From assembly GCA_001776775.1 (NCBI GenBank), contig MFDD01000002.1, positions 169,834-233,833 on the forward strand: DNA of 64,000 nt, written 5' to 3'. Position 1 is the stretch's first letter. Each line of letters begins with the position of its first letter. The position numbers and the translations under genes are program-made. The stretch is from Candidatus Daviesbacteria bacterium RIFCSPHIGHO2_02_FULL_43_12 (GTDB lineage Bacteria; Patescibacteriota; Microgenomatia; Daviesbacterales; UBA10151). This document shows positions 7,851-19,876 of this stretch, piece after piece. Below the pieces are notes generated by a model. It saw nothing but the letters and a program-made list of their open reading frames with translations. It made no database searches and had not been told where the DNA came from.

Positions 7851-7922
7851 GGGGCCGTAGCTCAATGGTAGAGCAATTCCCTGTCACGGAATAGGTCGCC
7901 GGTTCAAATCCGGTCGGTCCCG
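7851..7922 (+). tRNA. tRNA-Asp (anticodon GTC)
   Basis: Cloverleaf folded by hand: acceptor GGGGCCG/CGGTCCC, D arm GCTC-AATGGTA-GAGC, anticodon loop cTGTCac, T arm GCCGG-TTCAAAT-CCGGT; no encoded CCA. Confidence 0.9.
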
Positions 7923-7940
7923 CTACTCTATTTTGACTTC

Positions 7941-9699: not shown

Positions 9700-10059
9700 T
9701 TATTTTCCAGGCTTCATTTCTGGACTCATTAACCCAGTCCGAACACTGACAGCATCCTGTGGGTTAGGACTGGCTCGATCTGGCTTGGATCTTTGTTCAA
9801 TCATGCGCTGAGGACGTTCTGGTGGTTTTAGCAGATCTGGAAAGGGAGTTTCCTTCTCGGGCAATTTGACTGCAAATTCTTGCTCTACAGCCTCTTTGAC
9901 TACAGCTCCCGGGATCTCCGTAGCACCTCCCACAACTCCTCTTCCAACACTACTAGCAAGTCCTCCAATCAGCCCTTTTCCTCCAAAAGGACCCATTTTT
10001 GCTTCAGCTTGAGGAGCAGGGGCGACAGCTTTAGGTTCTTGTTCAGTAATATCAGCCAT
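9700..10059 (-). CDS. Hypothetical Gly/Pro-rich protein
   Basis: ORF-track ORF begins with TTG at 10074; first ATG is at 10059 (MADITEQEP…). No recognisable domain. Confidence 0.35.
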   Translation of the reverse strand: MADITEQEPKAVAPAPQAEAKMGPFGGKGLIGGLASSVGRGVVGGATEIPGAVVKEAVEQEFAVKLPEKETPFPDLLKPPERPQRMIEQRSKPDRASPNPQDAVSVRTGLMSPEMKPGK

Positions 10060-10100
10060 AGGTTTAGTGTACAAGAAAATAGGTTAGAAGACAAAAGAGG

Positions 10101-10172
10101 AGCCGACTATCGGATTTGAACCGATGACCTACTGTTTACGATACAGCCGCTCTACCACTGAGCTAAGTCGGC
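10101..10172 (-). tRNA. tRNA-Thr (anticodon CGT)
   Basis: Reverse complement folds as GCCGACT-TA-GCTC-AGTGGTA-GAGC-G-GCTGT-aTCGTAa-ACAGT-AGGTC-ATCGG-TTCAAAT-CCGAT-AGTCGGC-T. Confidence 0.9.
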
Positions 10173-10932: not shown

Positions 10933-11772
10933 TTATTTTTCAGCAGTAAAGATACAGTACCTAATCAGTCCCTTTTTCATCAATTCATACCACTCGACTG
11001 CTATAGTTGTATTAACAAAATACCGTTGTAAGTTGAATAATTTAATAAGGAAATACGGCAATAAAGCAATCCTTCTTAACCTTTGAAGTGAAGGTAACAT
11101 ATTTTTGGTAATATTTCTTTCCTTAATATTTTTAAAACCTATTTTCTTTAAGTAGCTTCCAAACTGGTCATGTTTAAACTCTTTAAGACCCAAGGCTGCT
11201 GTTCCCTCTATTCCCAAGTTGAGCATTTCCAGCTCCCGGGATGTAAAATCTTTTTCAGGCGCAAGAGTATATTCAAAAAATACGACTTTTCCATTTGGCT
11301 TTAGGATATTTAAAAATTGCCTTAAAGTCTTTTTTAGTTCTGCCGCATGAGAGAGGGTTTCTAAGGTAAAAATTGCATCAAAAGTGTTTTTAGTAAAAGA
11401 GGTCCTGGAATAATCCATTATTTCAAATTTCACTCTACCTTCGAGATTTAATTTCCTCGCTCTGCCTCTCGCCTTTCCTATTTCATAACTATTAAGATCT
11501 AGCCCGACAATATTCACCTTACTTTTTTCGGCTAAGTAACACGCAACCACTCCGTAACCACAACCAGCATCTAAGACCATTTGATTAGGTTTAAGACGCA
11601 GATATTTCGCTACTAAATCAGACATCAGTTGCTGTGCTTCATGTTCGGAGATGTTCCTTTGACCTTCAGGATAGTAACCAAAATGCTTTACCTTTTTAGT
11701 AATATATTCATAGCCAAGTTTCGACTCAAGACTTTTATAGTAACCCAAAACTTTTTTCTGATTAATATTCAT
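10933..11772 (-). CDS. Class I SAM-dependent methyltransferase
   Basis: 279 aa; motif I VLDAGCGYG, Rossmann-fold pattern. Confidence 0.8.
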   Translation of the reverse strand: MNINQKKVLGYYKSLESKLGYEYITKKVKHFGYYPEGQRNISEHEAQQLMSDLVAKYLRLKPNQMVLDAGCGYGVVACYLAEKSKVNIVGLDLNSYEIGKARGRARKLNLEGRVKFEIMDYSRTSFTKNTFDAIFTLETLSHAAELKKTLRQFLNILKPNGKVVFFEYTLAPEKDFTSRELEMLNLGIEGTAALGLKEFKHDQFGSYLKKIGFKNIKERNITKNMLPSLQRLRRIALLPYFLIKLFNLQRYFVNTTIAVEWYELMKKGLIRYCIFTAEK

Positions 11773-11935: not shown

Positions 11936-12283
11936 TTAAAAAAGGACTCTAAAGTAGAAAAATAGGAAGACTAGTATGTGTATTGGTGCAGTAATTAAAC
12001 CTGGTACATACTTTTTAGCTACTCCTGACCAAACGATATGTTGGACTCCATTGGCGAACATTAGCACTAAGAAAAATGCTTGAAAATACTGCCTATTAGG
12101 AAAATCCTGAAGAAAATAAACACTGATCCAAAACCCTTCAAATACTAACTCAAATAGTAAAAATACCCAAAATGGCATTTTGAAGGCATACCATTTTTTA
12201 TGGAACCCTGTAAATAGTTCTTCTAACACATGTGCAATCTGTACAAGTACACTTATCAAGAAAAATTGCTCCAAAAGACTCAT
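11936..12283 (-). CDS. HXXEE-domain small membrane protein
   Basis: 115 aa, 4 TM segments, IAHVLEELF (HxxEE) motif. Confidence 0.55.
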   Translation of the reverse strand: MSLLEQFFLISVLVQIAHVLEELFTGFHKKWYAFKMPFWVFLLFELVFEGFWISVYFLQDFPNRQYFQAFFLVLMFANGVQHIVWSGVAKKYVPGLITAPIHILVFLFFYFRVLF

Positions 12284-12349
12284 AACTTAACTATACCAAA
12301 AGTGAGTTGTTTTTAGTAAGCAAAAAAAGTAATATTGACCCATAATTTT

Positions 12350-13909
12350 ATGGCTAAGACTCCTGATGGCACCCTGAGATACTTTGACTACATTCCTGGA
12401 CAATCCTTTCGTCCCTTTTTGCAAGCTGCTTTAGATCAGCGATTAGGTGCTCAATACGAAGCTTCGTCCAAAACAGATTACAAAGTTCATCCTATAATCG
12501 CTGATCGTCTTCAAAATATCCGGCTTCTTCCCCAAGATAGACGATACATTAGAGTAATTCACGCTCTTGACCCTGATAATCGTCAGCTTACCGAGGGTTT
12601 AGCCTACTTATTAGATACAGCTAGTACTCCACTTGCCACTAGGAAGATCAAGGAGCGTTTTGCCCAGACAAAAGTTTCCTTAGACGACTGTCTGACAGGT
12701 TTTAGCTCAGCCGAAAAGGGGATACTTGCAGAAAATTTGGCCTTTTTGCAATTGACAGAAGGCTGCACTGTGGGATGTTCCTTTTGCGGGGTAAGCGCCG
12801 CCAGAAAAGTTTCTTCTTCTTTTTCCTTGGAGTCATTAGTTAAGTTTGGCAAAGAAGTCCCTGGCAAGATGAATAGATTATCAACTTTATACTATGCCTC
12901 TGACCCTTTTGACTGGATTGACGGAGATTATACATATCTAGATTTATCGCCTCTTTGGGGTACTTACACCTCTGGTGTTCCTTATATGAGCACATCTTTA
13001 CCACTCGGTGCAGAATTCTCTGTTCTGCGTTTTTTAGAAGCTAATTACCATCTTTATAATCAGGGAAAAGATGCAGCCTCTGTAAGACAGATACGCTTTT
13101 CTAGAACTTCCCATAATGCTGCGCGAGTAGATACTATTTTTAGTGTCTTAGAACAAAGAGGCGTTAGTAAGGACTTTTTATCGACAATGCAGATTAATGA
13201 TCTAACTAAACAAGATTCCATTCGGAAAAATGGTCATTTAATTCATCATCCAGATAGAGATCCGCTAGCCGATGCATGGGGTATAAGTTGTCAAGATGGG
13301 GTATACATATCTCCTGGTCAAGGAGTTCGGGCGGGTATCGTCGAAGCATGTACGAGGGCCTCACCGACCGGATTATTCACATGGCCACTCGAACCCGGAC
13401 GTATGACGATTCCGGTTGAACGCTTTACTGGTTCAAGCGAATATGAGCATCCAGGGACTGCAATTTATGGTCGACTAAGCTTTAGTCTAATCCCTGAAGC
13501 TGAGGTAATGGAGGTAAGAAATGGAAAAATTACAGATCGTCATGTTTACCCCTCCATCAGGCGTGATATAAAAACTTTTCTGGTCGCTCTGAGAAATCTA
13601 GGATCATTAGCCGTTTTTTACAACTTTGAGGACAACACTAGGATATCCAAATTACGGTTTCTTGTAGCAGACGAGATCTCAGAGTTACGTGATGAGTTTG
13701 AAAGAAGAAGAGAAAAGTGTGAAAGATCTTTTCCTCAAAATAAAGATAGTGAAGCAGTAGCAATAGCCACAGAACTTATACGAAGAACGAGTCAACGATT
13801 TGACGAGCTCGCTGAGGTCTTGAAACCGGGGTTTGGAAGATCAGAAATCCCCCCAGGACTTTTGACTGACCCATATGGCAACTTAAGAACAGAGATTCTC
13901 TCGAGGTAA
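12350..13909 (+). CDS. Radical SAM enzyme of unknown function with ~145-aa N-terminal extension
   Basis: CxxxCxxC cluster at CTVGCSFCG ~aa 150; ORF track start 12335 is TTG, first ATG 12350; no SPASM/twitch Cys cluster seen; GC higher than surroundings. Confidence 0.7.
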   Translation: MAKTPDGTLRYFDYIPGQSFRPFLQAALDQRLGAQYEASSKTDYKVHPIIADRLQNIRLLPQDRRYIRVIHALDPDNRQLTEGLAYLLDTASTPLATRKIKERFAQTKVSLDDCLTGFSSAEKGILAENLAFLQLTEGCTVGCSFCGVSAARKVSSSFSLESLVKFGKEVPGKMNRLSTLYYASDPFDWIDGDYTYLDLSPLWGTYTSGVPYMSTSLPLGAEFSVLRFLEANYHLYNQGKDAASVRQIRFSRTSHNAARVDTIFSVLEQRGVSKDFLSTMQINDLTKQDSIRKNGHLIHHPDRDPLADAWGISCQDGVYISPGQGVRAGIVEACTRASPTGLFTWPLEPGRMTIPVERFTGSSEYEHPGTAIYGRLSFSLIPEAEVMEVRNGKITDRHVYPSIRRDIKTFLVALRNLGSLAVFYNFEDNTRISKLRFLVADEISELRDEFERRREKCERSFPQNKDSEAVAIATELIRRTSQRFDELAEVLKPGFGRSEIPPGLLTDPYGNLRTEILSR

Positions 13910-13913
13910 TATC

Positions 13914-14192
13914 CTACTGTAGAGCTTCTGGTAACATCATTCTCCAAACCTCTGGTGTAGTCTGCGCTCTAAGCGCACGAATCACCCGACACCTCGATGC
14001 TAAAAAAGCCGCACCATTTCTTCTATGAGAATCGTCTCCTTCGTGCGGCTCTTTAGCAAAGAAATGACCAACGCTACATCCATCACAAAAAACAGCAATA
14101 GTCGGCATTTTTTGGATTGGGAATTCAGTCTCTCCTGCTGGTTGATAAGAGACACCTGTCATCGTTTCAGCTCCACAACGTGCTATAGACAT
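13914..14192 (-). CDS. Small Cys-containing hypothetical protein (92 aa), convergent on radical SAM gene
   Basis: ATG start verified; GC-rich; 5 Cys including CDGC; no family recognised; could be spurious. Confidence 0.3.
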   Translation of the reverse strand: MSIARCGAETMTGVSYQPAGETEFPIQKMPTIAVFCDGCSVGHFFAKEPHEGDDSHRRNGAAFLASRCRVIRALRAQTTPEVWRMMLPEALQ

Positions 14193-14277
14193 AGGTGAAT
14201 AGTATGTTTCACAAGCGCAGAAGTCAATTAATACCGAAGATTAAAAATAATAGGTATTAAAAACTGAACCAGGCTTT

Positions 14278-14877
14278 TTACTTTGGTGTTTGTTTATCTA
14301 TCTGAGGTCGCTTGGCAATATATTGCAAGATCGCCTGCTTATGAGATACATGACGATAAATAAGCACGAATCCAACAAATAGCATATAGCCTACTGCAAC
14401 ACCAATTGTATTGAATATCACATCATTGATGTCGGCAATCCGAAACGTAGTGTGTGCCAAGAGCCCTGTTACGAGCTGCGCAAGCTCAATAGCGATGCTA
14501 AACAGCGCTCCAGCAACAACTACCTTCTTCATGCGAAAGTTCGTAATGAACGGCAGCCCGAAGCCAAAAGGGATCAGCAGCAGAATGTTGAGTAGCGAGG
14601 TTTTCAGATCCGAAGGAGTAAGGGTGATAAGCGGGATAAGATTCATGTCTTTCCCAGCCGCTTGTCCATTCAGCATAAGGTCTGGTATAAAATACCTTAG
14701 AATAACTAGAGATTGAAATTGAAATAATGTGTAATCCAGAACCTTAACTATGTAGATATAGAATATAGTGAAGAATATCAAATATACGATACTTTTCTTA
14801 TTTCTAAACAAAAGAAACACGGCAACACCGATCCAAATCAAGCCCAAAAGAAGTACAATCAATAAATTAAAATACAT
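14278..14877 (-). CDS. VanZ-like family membrane protein
   Basis: ORF track start is GTG at 14892; first ATG at 14877. 4-5 TM helices and a C-terminal pattern (AIELAQLVTG…RIADINDVIFNTIG) like VanZ-like proteins. Confidence 0.5.
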   Translation of the reverse strand: MYFNLLIVLLLGLIWIGVAVFLLFRNKKSIVYLIFFTIFYIYIVKVLDYTLFQFQSLVILRYFIPDLMLNGQAAGKDMNLIPLITLTPSDLKTSLLNILLLIPFGFGLPFITNFRMKKVVVAGALFSIAIELAQLVTGLLAHTTFRIADINDVIFNTIGVAVGYMLFVGFVLIYRHVSHKQAILQYIAKRPQIDKQTPK

Positions 14878-15088
14878 TACAAATCCTACCACCCTCTCGA
14901 ACTCGCCTCGTTCGACGCGAGTCGAAGCGGGCCAATCACACTATATCATTCCTGATTTACGAACTTACTGATAACTGTCAATTGGAGCTGGTGACCGTAC
15001 TTTGCTCGAACCTAAGACAATCTGTTACTCCAGACTTAATTCTACAACTTCAGTTACTCAAATGTCATTTAAATATTGAGATCTTTAA

Positions 15089-15538
15089 TTAAAAACCTGG
15101 TGGATTATCTGAAATTTCAGGAGTACCGATCCATGGCAGTGGCACTAATTTATATTCGCATTCCCTTGCTTGTAGATGATACTTAAAAAATCCATTACTA
15201 CTTAACTCTTTCGAGAGCTCCCCATATTTTTGCTCGATTACTTTAGCACATCTATTGTAAGCGTATGTATGCACTTGAACCATAAAAAGAATAAACAGAT
15301 AGTAACTGAGAATAAGCGCAGGAAAAATAACAATGATTTTAAAGAGTGTACGGTTTTTTATTTGTAACCAAGCTAATGTTGCAATAATGAATGGGGCAAC
15401 CCACAGAAATTTTATATCAAAATTAAAGGTTGTACATATCTTATCAATTAGCACAAGCAGCAGGAAAGAAAACAATGTCACTAGTACAGTTTGTATAAAG
15501 TATTTGTAAATATTAATCGACTGTAATTTTTTTGTCAT
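15089..15538 (-). CDS. Hypothetical membrane protein
   Basis: 149 aa, 3-4 TM helices, no motif recognised. Confidence 0.4.
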   Translation of the reverse strand: MTKKLQSINIYKYFIQTVLVTLFSFLLLVLIDKICTTFNFDIKFLWVAPFIIATLAWLQIKNRTLFKIIVIFPALILSYYLFILFMVQVHTYAYNRCAKVIEQKYGELSKELSSNGFFKYHLQARECEYKLVPLPWIGTPEISDNPPGF

Positions 15539-15572
15539 TTTCTGTACATTTCTGTAGATAGCTGTTGATTAG

Positions 15573-15644
15573 AGCGGTGGACCGGACTTGAACCGGCGAC
15601 CTTCTCCTTGGGAAGGAGATATTCTACCACTGAACTACCACCGC
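15573..15644 (-). tRNA. tRNA-Gly (anticodon CCC)
   Basis: Reverse complement GCGGTGG-TA-GTTC-AGTGGTA-GAAT…TCTCC-tTCCCaa-GGAGA-AGGTC-GCCGG-TTCAAGT-CCGGT-CCACCGC-T; discriminator U. Confidence 0.9.
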
Positions 15645-15698
15645 TTAAGAGTAGAGTATAGCAAACTCGCACAAATAAAGTTAAGATATAATTAGTTT

Positions 15699-16430
15699 AT
15701 GCGCCGTAACCGTTATCCTTCCAAATCCTATCGGCCACGATCTGTTCGTCATTTTGAACAAAAAGGTAAACAAAAGGCTATCTGGTATTTGACCTTTATA
15801 CTGGTCTTGCTCTATGTCTTTTTTTCCTGGGGAATACCAACAATTATCAAAACAGTTTCTCGTTTCAATCATCCCAAATCAGCGCCCAAGGTAGGTACTG
15901 ATTATATTGAGCTAACCCCACCGGTTTTTAGCATCCCCTACGAAGCTACCCCCACTGCCTCTATCCGTATCTTAGGATATTCTCAACCCAATACAGAAGT
16001 CGCTATCTATCTTAATGACACCCTAGCTACCACGGTTCACACTGCAGACGATGGAACCTTCGAGTCAAGTGCATTGAGTCTGGATAAAGGCGAAAATTAC
16101 CTCTATGGAAAAACAGTTGATTCCTCCGGAAAGGAGAGCCTCTCTTCAAAATCTATCCGGATAGTCCTGAATATCGACAAACCAATACTAGAAGTTTTTG
16201 AACCTCAGGACAATAAAATAGTTTCCGGTGGAGACCGTAAAATCACGGTCAAAGGCAAAACAGACGCTTTGAGTATTAGTATCAATGGATCAATAGTGAT
16301 TATTTCCTCAGACGGCAGCTTTTCAAACGACCTCCAGCTTCAAGACGGAGAAACCCAAATTACTATTGTGGCCACAAATAGCGTGGGCAGTAGTACTTCC
16401 GTCCAAAGAAAAGTTACTTATTCTCCCTAA
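15699..16430 (+). CDS. Membrane-anchored protein with bacterial Ig-like beta-sandwich repeats
   Basis: 243 aa, basic N-terminus + TM, then Thr/Ser-rich repeated beta-strand pattern. Confidence 0.5.
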   Translation: MRRNRYPSKSYRPRSVRHFEQKGKQKAIWYLTFILVLLYVFFSWGIPTIIKTVSRFNHPKSAPKVGTDYIELTPPVFSIPYEATPTASIRILGYSQPNTEVAIYLNDTLATTVHTADDGTFESSALSLDKGENYLYGKTVDSSGKESLSSKSIRIVLNIDKPILEVFEPQDNKIVSGGDRKITVKGKTDALSISINGSIVIISSDGSFSNDLQLQDGETQITIVATNSVGSSTSVQRKVTYSP

Positions 16431-17583
16431 CTGACCAACAAACACCCAACCAAAAAAGCAGCACCAACATCACCGGAGGAAAAAAGAGGCTATTTATAAA
16501 CTGGCTATTGACCAACACCCCAAGCAGCAGCCCTCGGATCACCAAACCTAACTGATTAGAGTATTTAGCAAATATAATCCGGATCCAAAAATATAAAAAA
16601 GCTATTAACCCCGATATTCCGGTGGTCGCTAGTACAAATAGCAGGCTCGAATCAACCCCTGCCCCGGCATGTCCTCCATCCTCGGAGTATGTTTTAGTTA
16701 GAGCCAGGGTATCAAAAGCTAGTCTTAGGTTATTAAACCCCACGCCGAGAACTGGACTAGACTGAAAGACTAGCAATCCGTTTTTCCAAGAATAGAAACG
16801 TTCTATCGAAGATTTATCTACTCTAAAGCCTCCAATAATACGCTCTGAGAATTTAGGGATAGACAAGTAGAGCACTAAGTTTATCACCAGCAGGAGTATC
16901 AAAAGTTTACGGTACTTAAAAAATCCCCATATTAAGCACTGAACTATTAAAAATAGATAGGCTGAACGAGAAAAGGTGAGAATAATCCCACTACAGATTA
17001 AAACCGCAAGCCAGACACTCCACTTCTTTGGCGCCTTAACCCAGCTAAAAAAAGTTATTGCCAAAGTGACATTCAGAAAACTCCCTACAAAATTAGGATC
17101 TAAAAAGGTCGAAACTAGTCTACCTTGATGCGGATCAAAACCAAAAGGGGTTAAGGGACGGAGGTCAGAAAAGACCACAAGTTGGAGGATCCCTAAAACC
17201 GAGATTACTCCACCTAAAATAGCTAATAATTTATTTACCGTTTCCAGAGAGGTCACTTTTTCCTTGATTAAACAAAAGCCTATCCAAAAACTCAGACAAT
17301 AAAAAATAAACCTAATGAGATAAAACCCTCCTTGTAGATGCCCAGAAACTAGCAGGGATAAGACAGCTACTATCCAAAATGGTAACCAGAGTAGTAGCAC
17401 TTTCAATGTTGAGAGGTTTCTCTTTACTCCAATCTGCCAAACTAATAAAAAAACTACCGCTAGTCCTAACATCAAGTCATAGACCGTTACCGAAAGACCT
17501 CCTCCGCCAAAAGGAAATCGACCAAATTCTCCAAATACCAGAGCGACAAAGGTCCCGATCGTTAAAAACCAGACTAAGTTCAT
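16414..17583 (-). CDS. O-antigen ligase/Wzy-like polymerase family membrane protein
   Basis: 389 aa, ~10 TM helices, TFSRSAYL block characteristic of Wzy_C. Confidence 0.6.
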   Translation of the reverse strand: MNLVWFLTIGTFVALVFGEFGRFPFGGGGLSVTVYDLMLGLAVVFLLVWQIGVKRNLSTLKVLLLWLPFWIVAVLSLLVSGHLQGGFYLIRFIFYCLSFWIGFCLIKEKVTSLETVNKLLAILGGVISVLGILQLVVFSDLRPLTPFGFDPHQGRLVSTFLDPNFVGSFLNVTLAITFFSWVKAPKKWSVWLAVLICSGIILTFSRSAYLFLIVQCLIWGFFKYRKLLILLLVINLVLYLSIPKFSERIIGGFRVDKSSIERFYSWKNGLLVFQSSPVLGVGFNNLRLAFDTLALTKTYSEDGGHAGAGVDSSLLFVLATTGISGLIAFLYFWIRIIFAKYSNQLGLVIRGLLLGVLVNSQFINSLFFPPVMLVLLFWLGVCWSVRENK

Positions 17584-18602
17584 ACTTTTATCAGTCCAAA
17601 CCAGGTAATTTTCTTCGGACGAATATTTTGCAGCATATACTCGTCACTAACCTTTTTCATTTGTTGAACCGCTCTTCTTTTCTGGATCAATTTCTGCCAA
17701 TTCTTCAGAATATACCATTCGCTGCTGATTGCTTCCTTAAAATATCCATGAGTACCTAAAAAACGTACCGTATTTAGATTAACCAAAAAAAGCATCAAAA
17801 GATGATAAGGATTTTTAAAGAGCTTAGCTGGAAAGTCGGTAATAATAGTCTGGGTCATATTACGAAACTGCAAATATTCAGTTAGCTTTAAATTTTTTCG
17901 GGAAGTAGCTTTATGTATATGCCAAATCTTAGCTGTCGATTCAAACCAGCCCTTAAATCCGGCCATCTGCGCCCTCAGGCACAGGTCAACATCCTCATAA
18001 TAAGCAAAGAAGGTTTCGTCAAACAGCCCGATTTTCTCTAGCATCTCCCTCTTAAACAACCCGCCGCCTCCGGTAACCAAAAATACAAAATTAGATGTTT
18101 TAAATTTTTCACTCGGCTCACCAAAACCAATATTATCAGCATGACCTACCATATCAATATAATCACCAGCCGAGTCAATTAATTCTGGGTTAAAAAACTG
18201 TAACATTTTTGCCGCTACCATTCCAACCTCTGGATGCAGGTTAGCAGCACTCACCAAATTCCGAATACAATCTTTGTCTACCTTTGTATCATTATTGATG
18301 AGTATAATATATGTTCCCTTGCTGACTAAGATTCCTTTATTTGCGGCCGGAGAAAATCCGATATTCAAAGGCAGCTTTATTAGGTTTACTTGCGGAAAAT
18401 TTTCTTCAATATACTGGATTGACTCATCAGTCGAACCATTATCTACGACAATTATTTCAAAATCCAAAAAGGTTTGGGCTGTTAAACTTGGTAAACAAAT
18501 CTTCAGCAGCTTATGACCATTCCAGTTAGGAATCACTATCGAAGCTGTTACGGTAGTTTTTCTGGGCGGTAATTTAAGTATAGGTGGGTAAATTTCTTGC
18601 AC
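17580..18602 (-). CDS. Family 2 glycosyltransferase
   Basis: SIVIPNWN…VVDNGSTDES, DxD context; GTG start in ORF track. Confidence 0.85.
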   Translation of the reverse strand: MQEIYPPILKLPPRKTTVTASIVIPNWNGHKLLKICLPSLTAQTFLDFEIIVVDNGSTDESIQYIEENFPQVNLIKLPLNIGFSPAANKGILVSKGTYIILINNDTKVDKDCIRNLVSAANLHPEVGMVAAKMLQFFNPELIDSAGDYIDMVGHADNIGFGEPSEKFKTSNFVFLVTGGGGLFKREMLEKIGLFDETFFAYYEDVDLCLRAQMAGFKGWFESTAKIWHIHKATSRKNLKLTEYLQFRNMTQTIITDFPAKLFKNPYHLLMLFLVNLNTVRFLGTHGYFKEAISSEWYILKNWQKLIQKRRAVQQMKKVSDEYMLQNIRPKKITWFGLIKV

Positions 18603-19876
18603 TAGAGTCTTTTGAATACTTGACGCTGCAAAAAGGCAAAAAAGACGACAAAGGACAAAGCCTCAGATAATACAGTTACAACGGCTGCTCCATTATATCC
18701 AAACATCGGGATCAGCATCAAATTAGCCGCAATATTAAAACTAACGGTAATCACCGAAAGAGCTATTACACCGGTTAAGTATCTGTCAGAGGACAGCAAC
18801 ACTAATGATCCGGGAACATGGATAAAGATAAAAGGAATAGTCAAAGACAGGATCAACAGAGTCGGGATAGCATTAATATATTGAGGCAAAAAATGTTGAA
18901 TTAATATCGGCAGAACAACTACGAATCCGAGCAAAACCACAAAAGATGCCGCAAATAATAATTTTAGGGATTTGAAGTAGAGTCTTTTTACTTGCGCCAG
19001 ATCGTTACTATGCAATCTGGCCAGGACTGGAAACATGGCTGTGGCCACAGTTGCAGGAATAAACACCACCGCCTCCAAAAATTTATAAGCCGCACCATAA
19101 ATACCGGCTTCGTATGATCCCCGAATATAAGCAACTAACAAAGCGTCAATCTTGAAATAAATCAGGCCCAACACACCCAAGATACCATAAGGCAGTGACC
19201 CGACAGCTATCTCTCTTAGCATCTCGAAGGAAAGGGCGTGTGGACTGGTTTTTGTCTCTTTGAGATACCTATAACCCAGCTTTATAGGAATAATAAAGAG
19301 CACTAAACAATAAAATATCTGACCCAAGACTATGGCCGAAACTGCCCCAAACACTCCATATCCATTACTCAACAAAAATACCCCAAACAAGGTTGTGGCG
19401 ATATTTAAACACACCAACCCAACCGAAGACCAAAAAAGCTTTTCTACGCCTACAAAGGCGCTGTCCAGCGTAAAGGCAATCGCTTGCGGCAATACTGCCG
19501 AAACAGCCAGCAAAGTAAGGGCCACCCGCATATGATCAGGGTCGCTTACCCGCAGAAATAGGGCAAATAAGGCATAAACTACAGAGATCAGGGCCAGTCT
19601 AAAAAGAAGTACCGAACAAAATAGTTCTGAGAGTTTATTTTTATTATCCTTTTTGTTGCTCAAAAGCGCGGTCTGTCTGGTTAAAAACCGATTTATCCCA
19701 AATTCTGCCAAGGCTGAAATTAGTGAAAAGTAAGAAAGCGCAACGGTATAAAGTCCAAAGATTGCCGGATCCCCTAAAATTTTAATTAAATATATGGTAT
19801 AAAAAAAGGATACTACTTTAGTAAACAATTGGGCCGTCATAAGATAAGAAGAATTTCGAAAGATCCCCGGAGGCAT
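18602..19876 (-). CDS. Wzx-type polysaccharide flippase (MOP/MATE superfamily)
   Basis: 12-14 TM helices; ORF-track start 19930 is TTG, first ATG 19876. Confidence 0.7.
   Translation of the reverse strand: MPPGIFRNSSYLMTAQLFTKVVSFFYTIYLIKILGDPAIFGLYTVALSYFSLISALAEFGINRFLTRQTALLSNKKDNKNKLSELFCSVLLFRLALISVVYALFALFLRVSDPDHMRVALTLLAVSAVLPQAIAFTLDSAFVGVEKLFWSSVGLVCLNIATTLFGVFLLSNGYGVFGAVSAIVLGQIFYCLVLFIIPIKLGYRYLKETKTSPHALSFEMLREIAVGSLPYGILGVLGLIYFKIDALLVAYIRGSYEAGIYGAAYKFLEAVVFIPATVATAMFPVLARLHSNDLAQVKRLYFKSLKLLFAASFVVLLGFVVVLPILIQHFLPQYINAIPTLLILSLTIPFIFIHVPGSLVLLSSDRYLTGVIALSVITVSFNIAANLMLIPMFGYNGAAVVTVLSEALSFVVFFAFLQRQVFKRL

Follow-up and report, generated by a model that had tools for sequence, protein, structure and literature searches.

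To our knowledge, radical S-adenosylmethionine (SAM) peptide epimerases have so far been known only from the natural-product clusters for peptides that are made by ribosomes and modified after translation (RiPPs), in which the gene of the substrate lies beside the gene of the enzyme. We analyzed a 64,000-nucleotide stretch (hereafter the window) of contig MFDD01000002.1 from Candidatus Daviesbacteria bacterium RIFCSPHIGHO2_02_FULL_43_12, a groundwater organism with a very small genome, and in particular a gene at 12350..13909 of its plus strand that encodes a 519-residue radical SAM protein related to these epimerases. About 70 homologues of the epimerase PoyD share a single strictly conserved Cys outside the cluster motif, Cys372, which was proposed to be the H-atom donor, and the C372A exchange abolished epimerization in vivo (PMC8326336). 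Proteusin epimerases have no auxiliary cluster, unlike EpeE (PMC13012085). In EpeE, also called YydG, the hydrogen of the alpha carbon (C-alpha) is abstracted and a hydrogen is then donated by Cys223 of the enzyme (PMC8326336, PMC13012085). Our analysis places the Daviesbacteria protein outside the PoyD family, in a clade that is probably a remote sister of the proteusin-type epimerases (PoyD/OspD); the protein is very probably homologous to PoyD and a radical SAM enzyme with a single cluster.

The radical SAM open reading frame (ORF) described in an earlier note on this DNA was present as reported, running from the ATG at 12350 to 13909 on the plus strand. It constitutes a complete gene of 519 codons plus a stop, its codon usage is gene-like in its own frame only, and its product belongs to an uncurated clade. 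The ORF list offers an alternative TTG start at 12335; the 519-aa ATG form is identical to NCBI entry OGE31965.1 and to three further accessions, and no database entry was found for the 524-aa TTG form. NCBI names OGE31965.1 'hypothetical protein A2631_02490 [Candidatus Daviesbacteria bacterium ...]', and its UniRef name is 'Radical SAM core domain-containing protein'. The protein contains one CxxxCxxC motif, CTVGCSFC (aa 139-146, nt 12764-12787, plus strand), which binds the radical SAM [4Fe-4S] cluster; about 9 × 10−4 such motifs would be expected by chance. The motif is late, as had been noted, with 138 residues preceding it, and the position of about 145-150 given for it before was slightly high. 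The protein has seven Cys residues in total (114, 139, 143, 146, 314, 334 and 457), of which C314, C334 and C457 alone follow the cluster motif. Neither a further CxnC pair nor a second Cys cluster nor a Pfam match to SPASM was found in it, which agrees with the absence of SPASM/twitch Cys residues claimed before; the conserved C314 had been overlooked. Likewise, the absence of a B12 motif was confirmed, since the protein contains no DxHxxG and no B12-binding domain was matched by Pfam in aa 1-145 even at E ≤ 10.

The relatives of this protein are few. A word-indexed search of 5.8 billion clusters returned three, and when 1.84 billion representatives were searched exhaustively with a profile, the search returned 439 at E ≤ 10−3 and 47 at E ≤ 10−30, with about 23 relatives of near-full length. 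No relatives were found on viral contigs. We counted conservation in a 60-sequence alignment of the broad family and in a close clade of 22 sequences (alignment A3). The three cluster Cys residues, D185, T215, P218, S251 and G341 are invariant in the 60-sequence alignment, and the CxxxCxxC motif as such is present in 60/60 relatives and in 18/18 PoyD-type proteins. An S-D-P-F-D block (aa 184-188, 12899..12913, plus strand) is nearly invariant (D185 in 60/60, S184 in 58/60 and P186 in 56/60) and is shared with PoyD as [ST]DP[LF]D, aligning with its YWATDPLD. This block follows the predicted second strand of the core and appears to occupy the site of the GGE SAM-binding motif in canonical radical SAM enzymes. 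Outside the cluster, C314, which lies in an A/S-C-x-D-G context, is a Cys in 51/60 broad-family sequences and in 19/22 close-clade sequences; in contrast, C334 is kept in 4/60 and C457 in 8/60, and C114 is not conserved. An auxiliary cluster is thus excluded, because the 60 relatives have 4-10 Cys residues per protein and C314 is the only one conserved outside the cluster motif.

Close relatives are hosted by metagenome-assembled genomes of Daviesbacteria and Curtissbacteria, which are Microgenomates of the candidate phyla radiation (CPR), and weaker ones by Woesearchaeota and Micrarchaeota of the DPANN archaea. One close relative lies on a contig labelled Gammaproteobacteria (CAYMUB010000058.1, loci L004/L085, 'uncultured Gammaproteobacteria bacterium'). 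The genes of this contig are 59-68% identical to those of a Candidatus Daviesbacteria contig (L005) and are co-linear with them in inverted orientation; the Gammaproteobacteria bin label is probably wrong. The tier-3 relatives, which are more distant, include a 913-aa form (L099, 7131-9872, plus strand) and 596-aa forms (L008/L100), which have long N-terminal extensions and carry the cluster at about residue 220.

Curated resources did not hold a family for this clade. The Pfam model Radical_SAM (PF04055) scored 17.7 bits against the query, missing its gathering cutoff of 29.5, and covered aa 134-190 only. Among the 60 relatives, 33 matched this generic model at E ≤ 0.01 (best 1.6 × 10−8) and 28 weakly matched the NCBIfam model rSAM_PoyD, and none reached the cutoff of any curated family. 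For the query itself, rSAM_PoyD (TIGR04517), which describes a RiPP amino-acid epimerase family, was the best NCBIfam match (E value of 1.2 × 10−10). The PADLOC scan yielded no match, and the PHROGs scan yielded two weak phage families of unannotated function at the cluster region only. Sequence searches of the PDB with the single query and with the 60-sequence profile found no radical SAM relative; the coiled-coil and designed-protein matches that they returned were spurious, having been drawn by the helical C terminus. Hence, as the earlier note had stated, there is no confident full-length match to a characterized family. The clade has no curated family and no solved structure, and we found no paper on it in the literature.

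The link to PoyD became evident when whole families were compared. A cluster-motif scan of 185,579 species-representative genomes yielded 80 loci, and 9 of 10 ORFs tested from these loci proved to be true PoyD-family genes (389-597 bits against a cutoff of 325); when all scan loci were classified with three hidden Markov models (HMMs), most fell into the PoyD type. Distant matches from the exhaustive search were also tested as possible members of the PoyD family and are not members. From the PoyD-type proteins, including confirmed members, we built an 18-sequence profile (A4) and aligned it with the 22-sequence profile of the query clade (A3). The two aligned in hhalign with a probability of 99.1% and an E value of 5.5 × 10−19 over 241 columns, matching query aa 124-393 to PoyD positions 161-428. 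This PoyD-homologous region (12719..13528, plus strand) comprises the radical SAM core and a beta-rich subdomain that carries C314. A joint MAFFT alignment independently reproduced the co-linear motif blocks, pairing xQLTxGCTVGCxFCG of the query clade with xELSxGCSVGCWFCG of PoyD, LYxASDPFDW with CYWATDPLD, STAVP with TTTAxP, FRFS with NRFS, GIxCxDG with TIACVSG and NPxG with WPxGY; T215, S251 and G341 were aligned as well. In this alignment, the C314 column, occupied by Cys in 19/22 proteins of the close clade, is also that of the best-conserved non-cluster Cys of the PoyD proteins (17/18). Judged by this unique conservation rather than by the sequence numbering of PoyD itself, the column most plausibly corresponds to Cys372 of PoyD.

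The overall layout is shared too. PoyD, OspD, AvpD and PlpD have a similar size (about 450-520 aa), their cluster motif, xELSxGC[ST]VGCxFCG, lies about 130-180 residues from the N terminus, and the PoyD family model, with 446 positions, places the cluster at about position 130. They lack an auxiliary cluster, they have one conserved Cys outside the cluster in the aligned column, [ST]DP[FL]D replaces the usual GGE in them, and the (S/T)T(A), RFS and P-x-G blocks are common to both groups. Given the homology of the query and this shared layout, the combination of a late cluster motif, a length of about 500 aa and no SPASM/twitch domain is a signature of the PoyD class. The PoyD-type epimerases, which are homologous to the query over aa 124-393, therefore contradict the idea that no known radical SAM enzyme combines such a size and motif position with the lack of an auxiliary cluster. 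Nevertheless, the identity of the aligned core to the query is only about 21%, the putative donor Cys lies in G-I-x-C-x-D-G in the query and in T-I-A-C-V-S-G in PoyD, and the query clade is found in CPR and DPANN hosts, whereas PoyD occurs in cyanobacteria, rhizobia and the like.

The predicted structure sets the flanks apart from this core. An AlphaFold2 model built from the 60 sequences reached a predicted local distance difference test (pLDDT) score of 89.1 and a predicted template modelling score of 0.89; an earlier model from four sequences (pLDDT 42) was unusable. In the model, strands and helices alternate between aa 130 and 284, the part that starts at C314 is rich in beta structure, and a three-helix bundle closes the C terminus. 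The N-terminal region (aa 1-123, 12350..12718, plus strand) is predicted to be all-helical, with helices within aa 23-104 at pLDDT 81-98. It is specific to the clade, lies outside the hhalign range and has no Pfam match, and its first 50 or so residues are confined to the closest relatives (the top seven sequences of A3). The C-terminal region (aa 394-519, 13529..13906, plus strand), equally clade-specific and outside the hhalign range, consists of one strand followed by the predicted helices 403-426, 430-459 and 467-490. When the first 145 and the last 374 residues were searched against Pfam separately, as had been suggested, neither gave a match at E ≤ 10. The idea that the N terminus might resemble a RiPP recognition element found no support, as this part matched no family, is all-helical in the model and aligns to nothing in PoyD.

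A near-identical contig from an aquifer (L003; 99.8% identity over window positions 12152-18912) carries a variant of the gene. At 1450-1460 it lacks 31 bp corresponding to window positions 13604-13634, and the deletion, which is flanked by an AGGA direct repeat, shifts the frame and cuts the radical SAM protein to 428 aa (P0001), so that the C-terminal helical bundle is lost. The deletion reflects either variation within the population or an error in assembly. A second L003 indel of about 43 bp is located at window positions 15018-15036.

Taken by analogy with PoyD, these features would fit the following reaction. The protein would be a soluble radical SAM enzyme of a small uncurated clade, and its single [4Fe-4S] cluster, bound by C139, C143 and C146, would cleave SAM reductively. 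The resulting 5′-deoxyadenosyl radical would take a hydrogen from the substrate, most likely the C-alpha hydrogen of a peptide or protein residue, and the thiol of Cys314 (codon 13289..13291, plus strand, within GISCQDG), a candidate H-atom donor by its conservation and by the column it shares with the PoyD Cys, may then return a hydrogen on the opposite face and convert the L-residue to a D-residue. The chemistry proposed here is that of EpeE/YydG, in which a C-alpha hydrogen is abstracted and a Cys of the enzyme then supplies a hydrogen. EpeE differs, however, in having a twitch/T-SPASM domain with an auxiliary [4Fe-4S] cluster (PMC13012085), for which the query has no Cys residues; it shows no sequence or fold match to the query and was absent among the PDB matches. 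Both the chemistry and the peptide nature of the substrate are carried over from PoyD; we put the chances that the protein epimerizes a peptide or protein at about even.

The genomic setting is different from that of PoyD. In 14 of 18 PoyD control loci, a leader was found within 4 kb (NHLP-type in nine, Nif11-type in five), and HMMs built from these NHLP and Nif11 precursors recovered the controls at E values of 10−22 to 10−68. The neighbors of the query clade were surveyed at first 12 and then 20 loci, metagenome loci included, representing 17 independent groups. The gene in the window is a lone plus-strand gene between minus-strand genes for an HXXEE membrane protein and a VanZ-like protein. 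It stands alone in a region rich in envelope genes, unlike PoyD genes, which adjoin the gene of the substrate.

Several observations weigh against epimerization of a peptide. The rSAM_PoyD model scored the query at 40.9 bits against a cutoff of 325 and matched aa 126-231 to profile positions 116-223 of 446 only, and the N-terminal 123 or so and the C-terminal 125 or so residues of the query were not aligned to PoyD by hhalign. C314 is substituted in 9/60 sequences of the broad family and in 3/22 of the close clade. A Foldseek search of the AlphaFold2 model against the PDB gave nothing significant, with SkfB as the best match (E value of 0.03, TM-score of 0.17). Neither the 64-kb window nor any query-clade locus yielded an NHLP or Nif11 precursor (best E value of 0.2 or worse), and no obligatory neighbor or conserved small ORF was found across the 17 independent groups. 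Finally, radical SAM enzymes that are remotely homologous need not catalyze the same reaction. As no precursor gene is linked, the substrate would have to be encoded elsewhere. A more specific version of the proposed peptide epimerization is that ultra-small CPR bacteria, with a related form in DPANN archaea, have a PoyD-like epimerase detached from natural-product clusters that puts D-amino acids into a housekeeping target. Proteins of the surface or of pili, glycoproteins and cell-wall peptides would be examples of such targets, and the clade-specific helical N- and C-terminal domains would replace leader-guided recognition. We regard this version as quite improbable.

Of the alternatives, the one that survives best assumes the same scaffold with another class of substrate, a cell-envelope glycan or glycoconjugate intermediate that undergoes radical epimerization of a sugar or another C-H transformation. 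Radical SAM epimerization of a sugar is already known from the avilamycin pathway (cited in PMC8326336), and several loci have suggestive neighbors. At L005, the gene is part of a same-strand array (PMT_2-GT4-PMT-231aa-rSAM-GT4, where GT stands for glycosyltransferase), at L006 it has a Wzx flippase gene upstream and a Wzy_C gene downstream, at L004/L085 it is divergent from the adjacent mraZ of the dcw cluster, and in the window Wzy_C, GT2 and Wzx genes lie 2.5-6 kb away. The Wzx-type flippase is the most widespread neighbor of all, being shared by 3/17 independent groups. However, of the other 48 ORFs in the window, at least 13 are glycan genes (glycosyltransferase, PMT or Bac_transf), as are 3 of the 13 within 6 kb of the radical SAM gene, so that there is no measurable enrichment, the neighbors in loci on shorter contigs are unrelated, and the sole characterized homologues act on peptides. 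We therefore dropped the envelope-glycan association as evidence, the background density in the window being equally high, and because the rest of the window is equally rich, the proximity of envelope genes is a weak lead only. Overall, a glycan substrate seems to us unlikely.

Another alternative retains a peptide or protein substrate and assumes a chemistry other than epimerization, in which the fate of the substrate radical differs and the role of C314 is structural or redox. Sactisynthases and epimerases both begin with C-alpha hydrogen abstraction and then diverge (PMC8326336), C314 is missing in some members of the clade, and the distinct terminal domains suggest another way of handling the substrate. 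On the other hand, maturases that form thioethers or C-C bonds or transfer methyl groups normally require auxiliary clusters or cobalamin, of which the query has neither, and its only conserved extra Cys lies exactly at the donor position of PoyD. This alternative is in our view improbable and ranks below a glycan substrate.

The small Cys-rich ORF beside the gene, which the earlier note had put forward as a plausible partner, does exist (13914..14192, minus strand; 92 aa with four Cys), and as a substrate or partner it would make the query a RiPP-like maturase. It lies 4 nt from the stop of the radical SAM gene, it appears in the ORF list and is called as a gene on L003, and its codon usage is gene-like in its own frame only (log-likelihood ratio [LLR] of +0.14, the other five frames being negative). 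Yet the 5.8 billion clusters contain a single match to it, which is 100% identical and stems from the same organism, the ORF matched no family in Pfam, NCBIfam, PADLOC or PHROGs, and a counterpart is absent beside all 16 other independent relatives. The two genes are convergent and hence not co-transcribed. Collectively, these data largely refute a partner role, which we consider very improbable, and the ORF is probably a lineage-specific orphan gene. Lastly, a mis-scored housekeeping enzyme (a MiaB/RimO/MtaB methylthiotransferase) or a SPASM maturase like SkfB, the radical SAM RiPP maturase that forms the thioether of sporulation killing factor (PDB 6efn), is practically excluded: the weak NCBIfam matches to MiaB-like, RimO and SkfB models (E values of 2 × 10−4 to 10−2) are confined to the cluster loop, spanning about 35-65 residues (aa 101-165) at 14-21 bits against cutoffs of 251-357, the query has no UPF0004 Cys (its sole N-terminal Cys being the non-conserved C114), TRAM domain or SPASM Cys, and SkfB, which has an auxiliary cluster where the query has none, superimposed with a TM-score of 0.17-0.22 and a root-mean-square deviation of 11.6 Å.

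The clade thus keeps the catalytic core and the Cys at the donor position but combines them with new flanking domains, no linked precursor and a stand-alone gene in minimal genomes. If the protein is an epimerase, peptides or proteins containing D-amino acids would be expected in CPR and DPANN organisms, whose biochemistry is almost unexplored, and the protein would offer a leader-independent epimerase scaffold of possible biotechnological use. Should a housekeeping protein or peptide indeed be the target, the enzyme would convert L- to D-residues post-translationally, and its role would be physiological, not antibiotic. If the chemistry is different, the clade would show the extent to which the PoyD scaffold has diversified. 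In both cases, it merits a curated model of its own.

Additional observations were made at the control loci and in the window. In an actinobacterial PoyD-family ORF (L056, 9614-11125, plus strand), aa 29-69 match the NHLP-clan leader model NF038399 (E value of 1.4 × 10−9); either the ORF call extends too far and runs through a precursor gene upstream, or leader and enzyme are truly fused. A 34-aa ORF upstream of a tier-3 relative (L170) was considered and was unconvincing, being Lys-rich and conserved nowhere else. In the window, a 124-aa ORF (9700-10074, minus strand) fills the gap between a GDSL-like gene and the gene for tRNA-Thr, has the strongest codon-usage LLR (+0.39) of the six ORFs scored and contains a Gly/Val/Ala-rich stretch, GGKGLIGGLASSVGRGVVGGATEIPGAVV. 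It has no Pfam match. As a possible core peptide it was rejected, since it has no counterpart in the loci of the relatives. A class I SAM methyltransferase gene (10933-11772, minus strand), two genes upstream of the radical SAM gene, matched mad2 in PADLOC (E value of 10−17), which probably reflects the generic methyltransferase domain alone; the gene is not conserved near the relatives.

The window also contains genes for tRNA-Asp (GTC; 7851-7923, plus strand), tRNA-Thr (CGT; 10099-10172, minus strand) and tRNA-Gly (CCC; 15572-15644, minus strand). The radical SAM gene sits between the latter two, and neither repeats nor an integrase were noticed there. Positions 20000-64000 form a near-unbroken run of mostly minus-strand genes rich in envelope functions, comprising six GT1/GT4 and four GT2 glycosyltransferase genes, two PMT_2 genes, a Bac_transf gene and a gene for an NAD-dependent epimerase, together with a dcw cluster that encodes MraW, a penicillin-binding protein transpeptidase, a Mur ligase, two FtsW/RodA proteins, MurG, FtsA and FtsZ.

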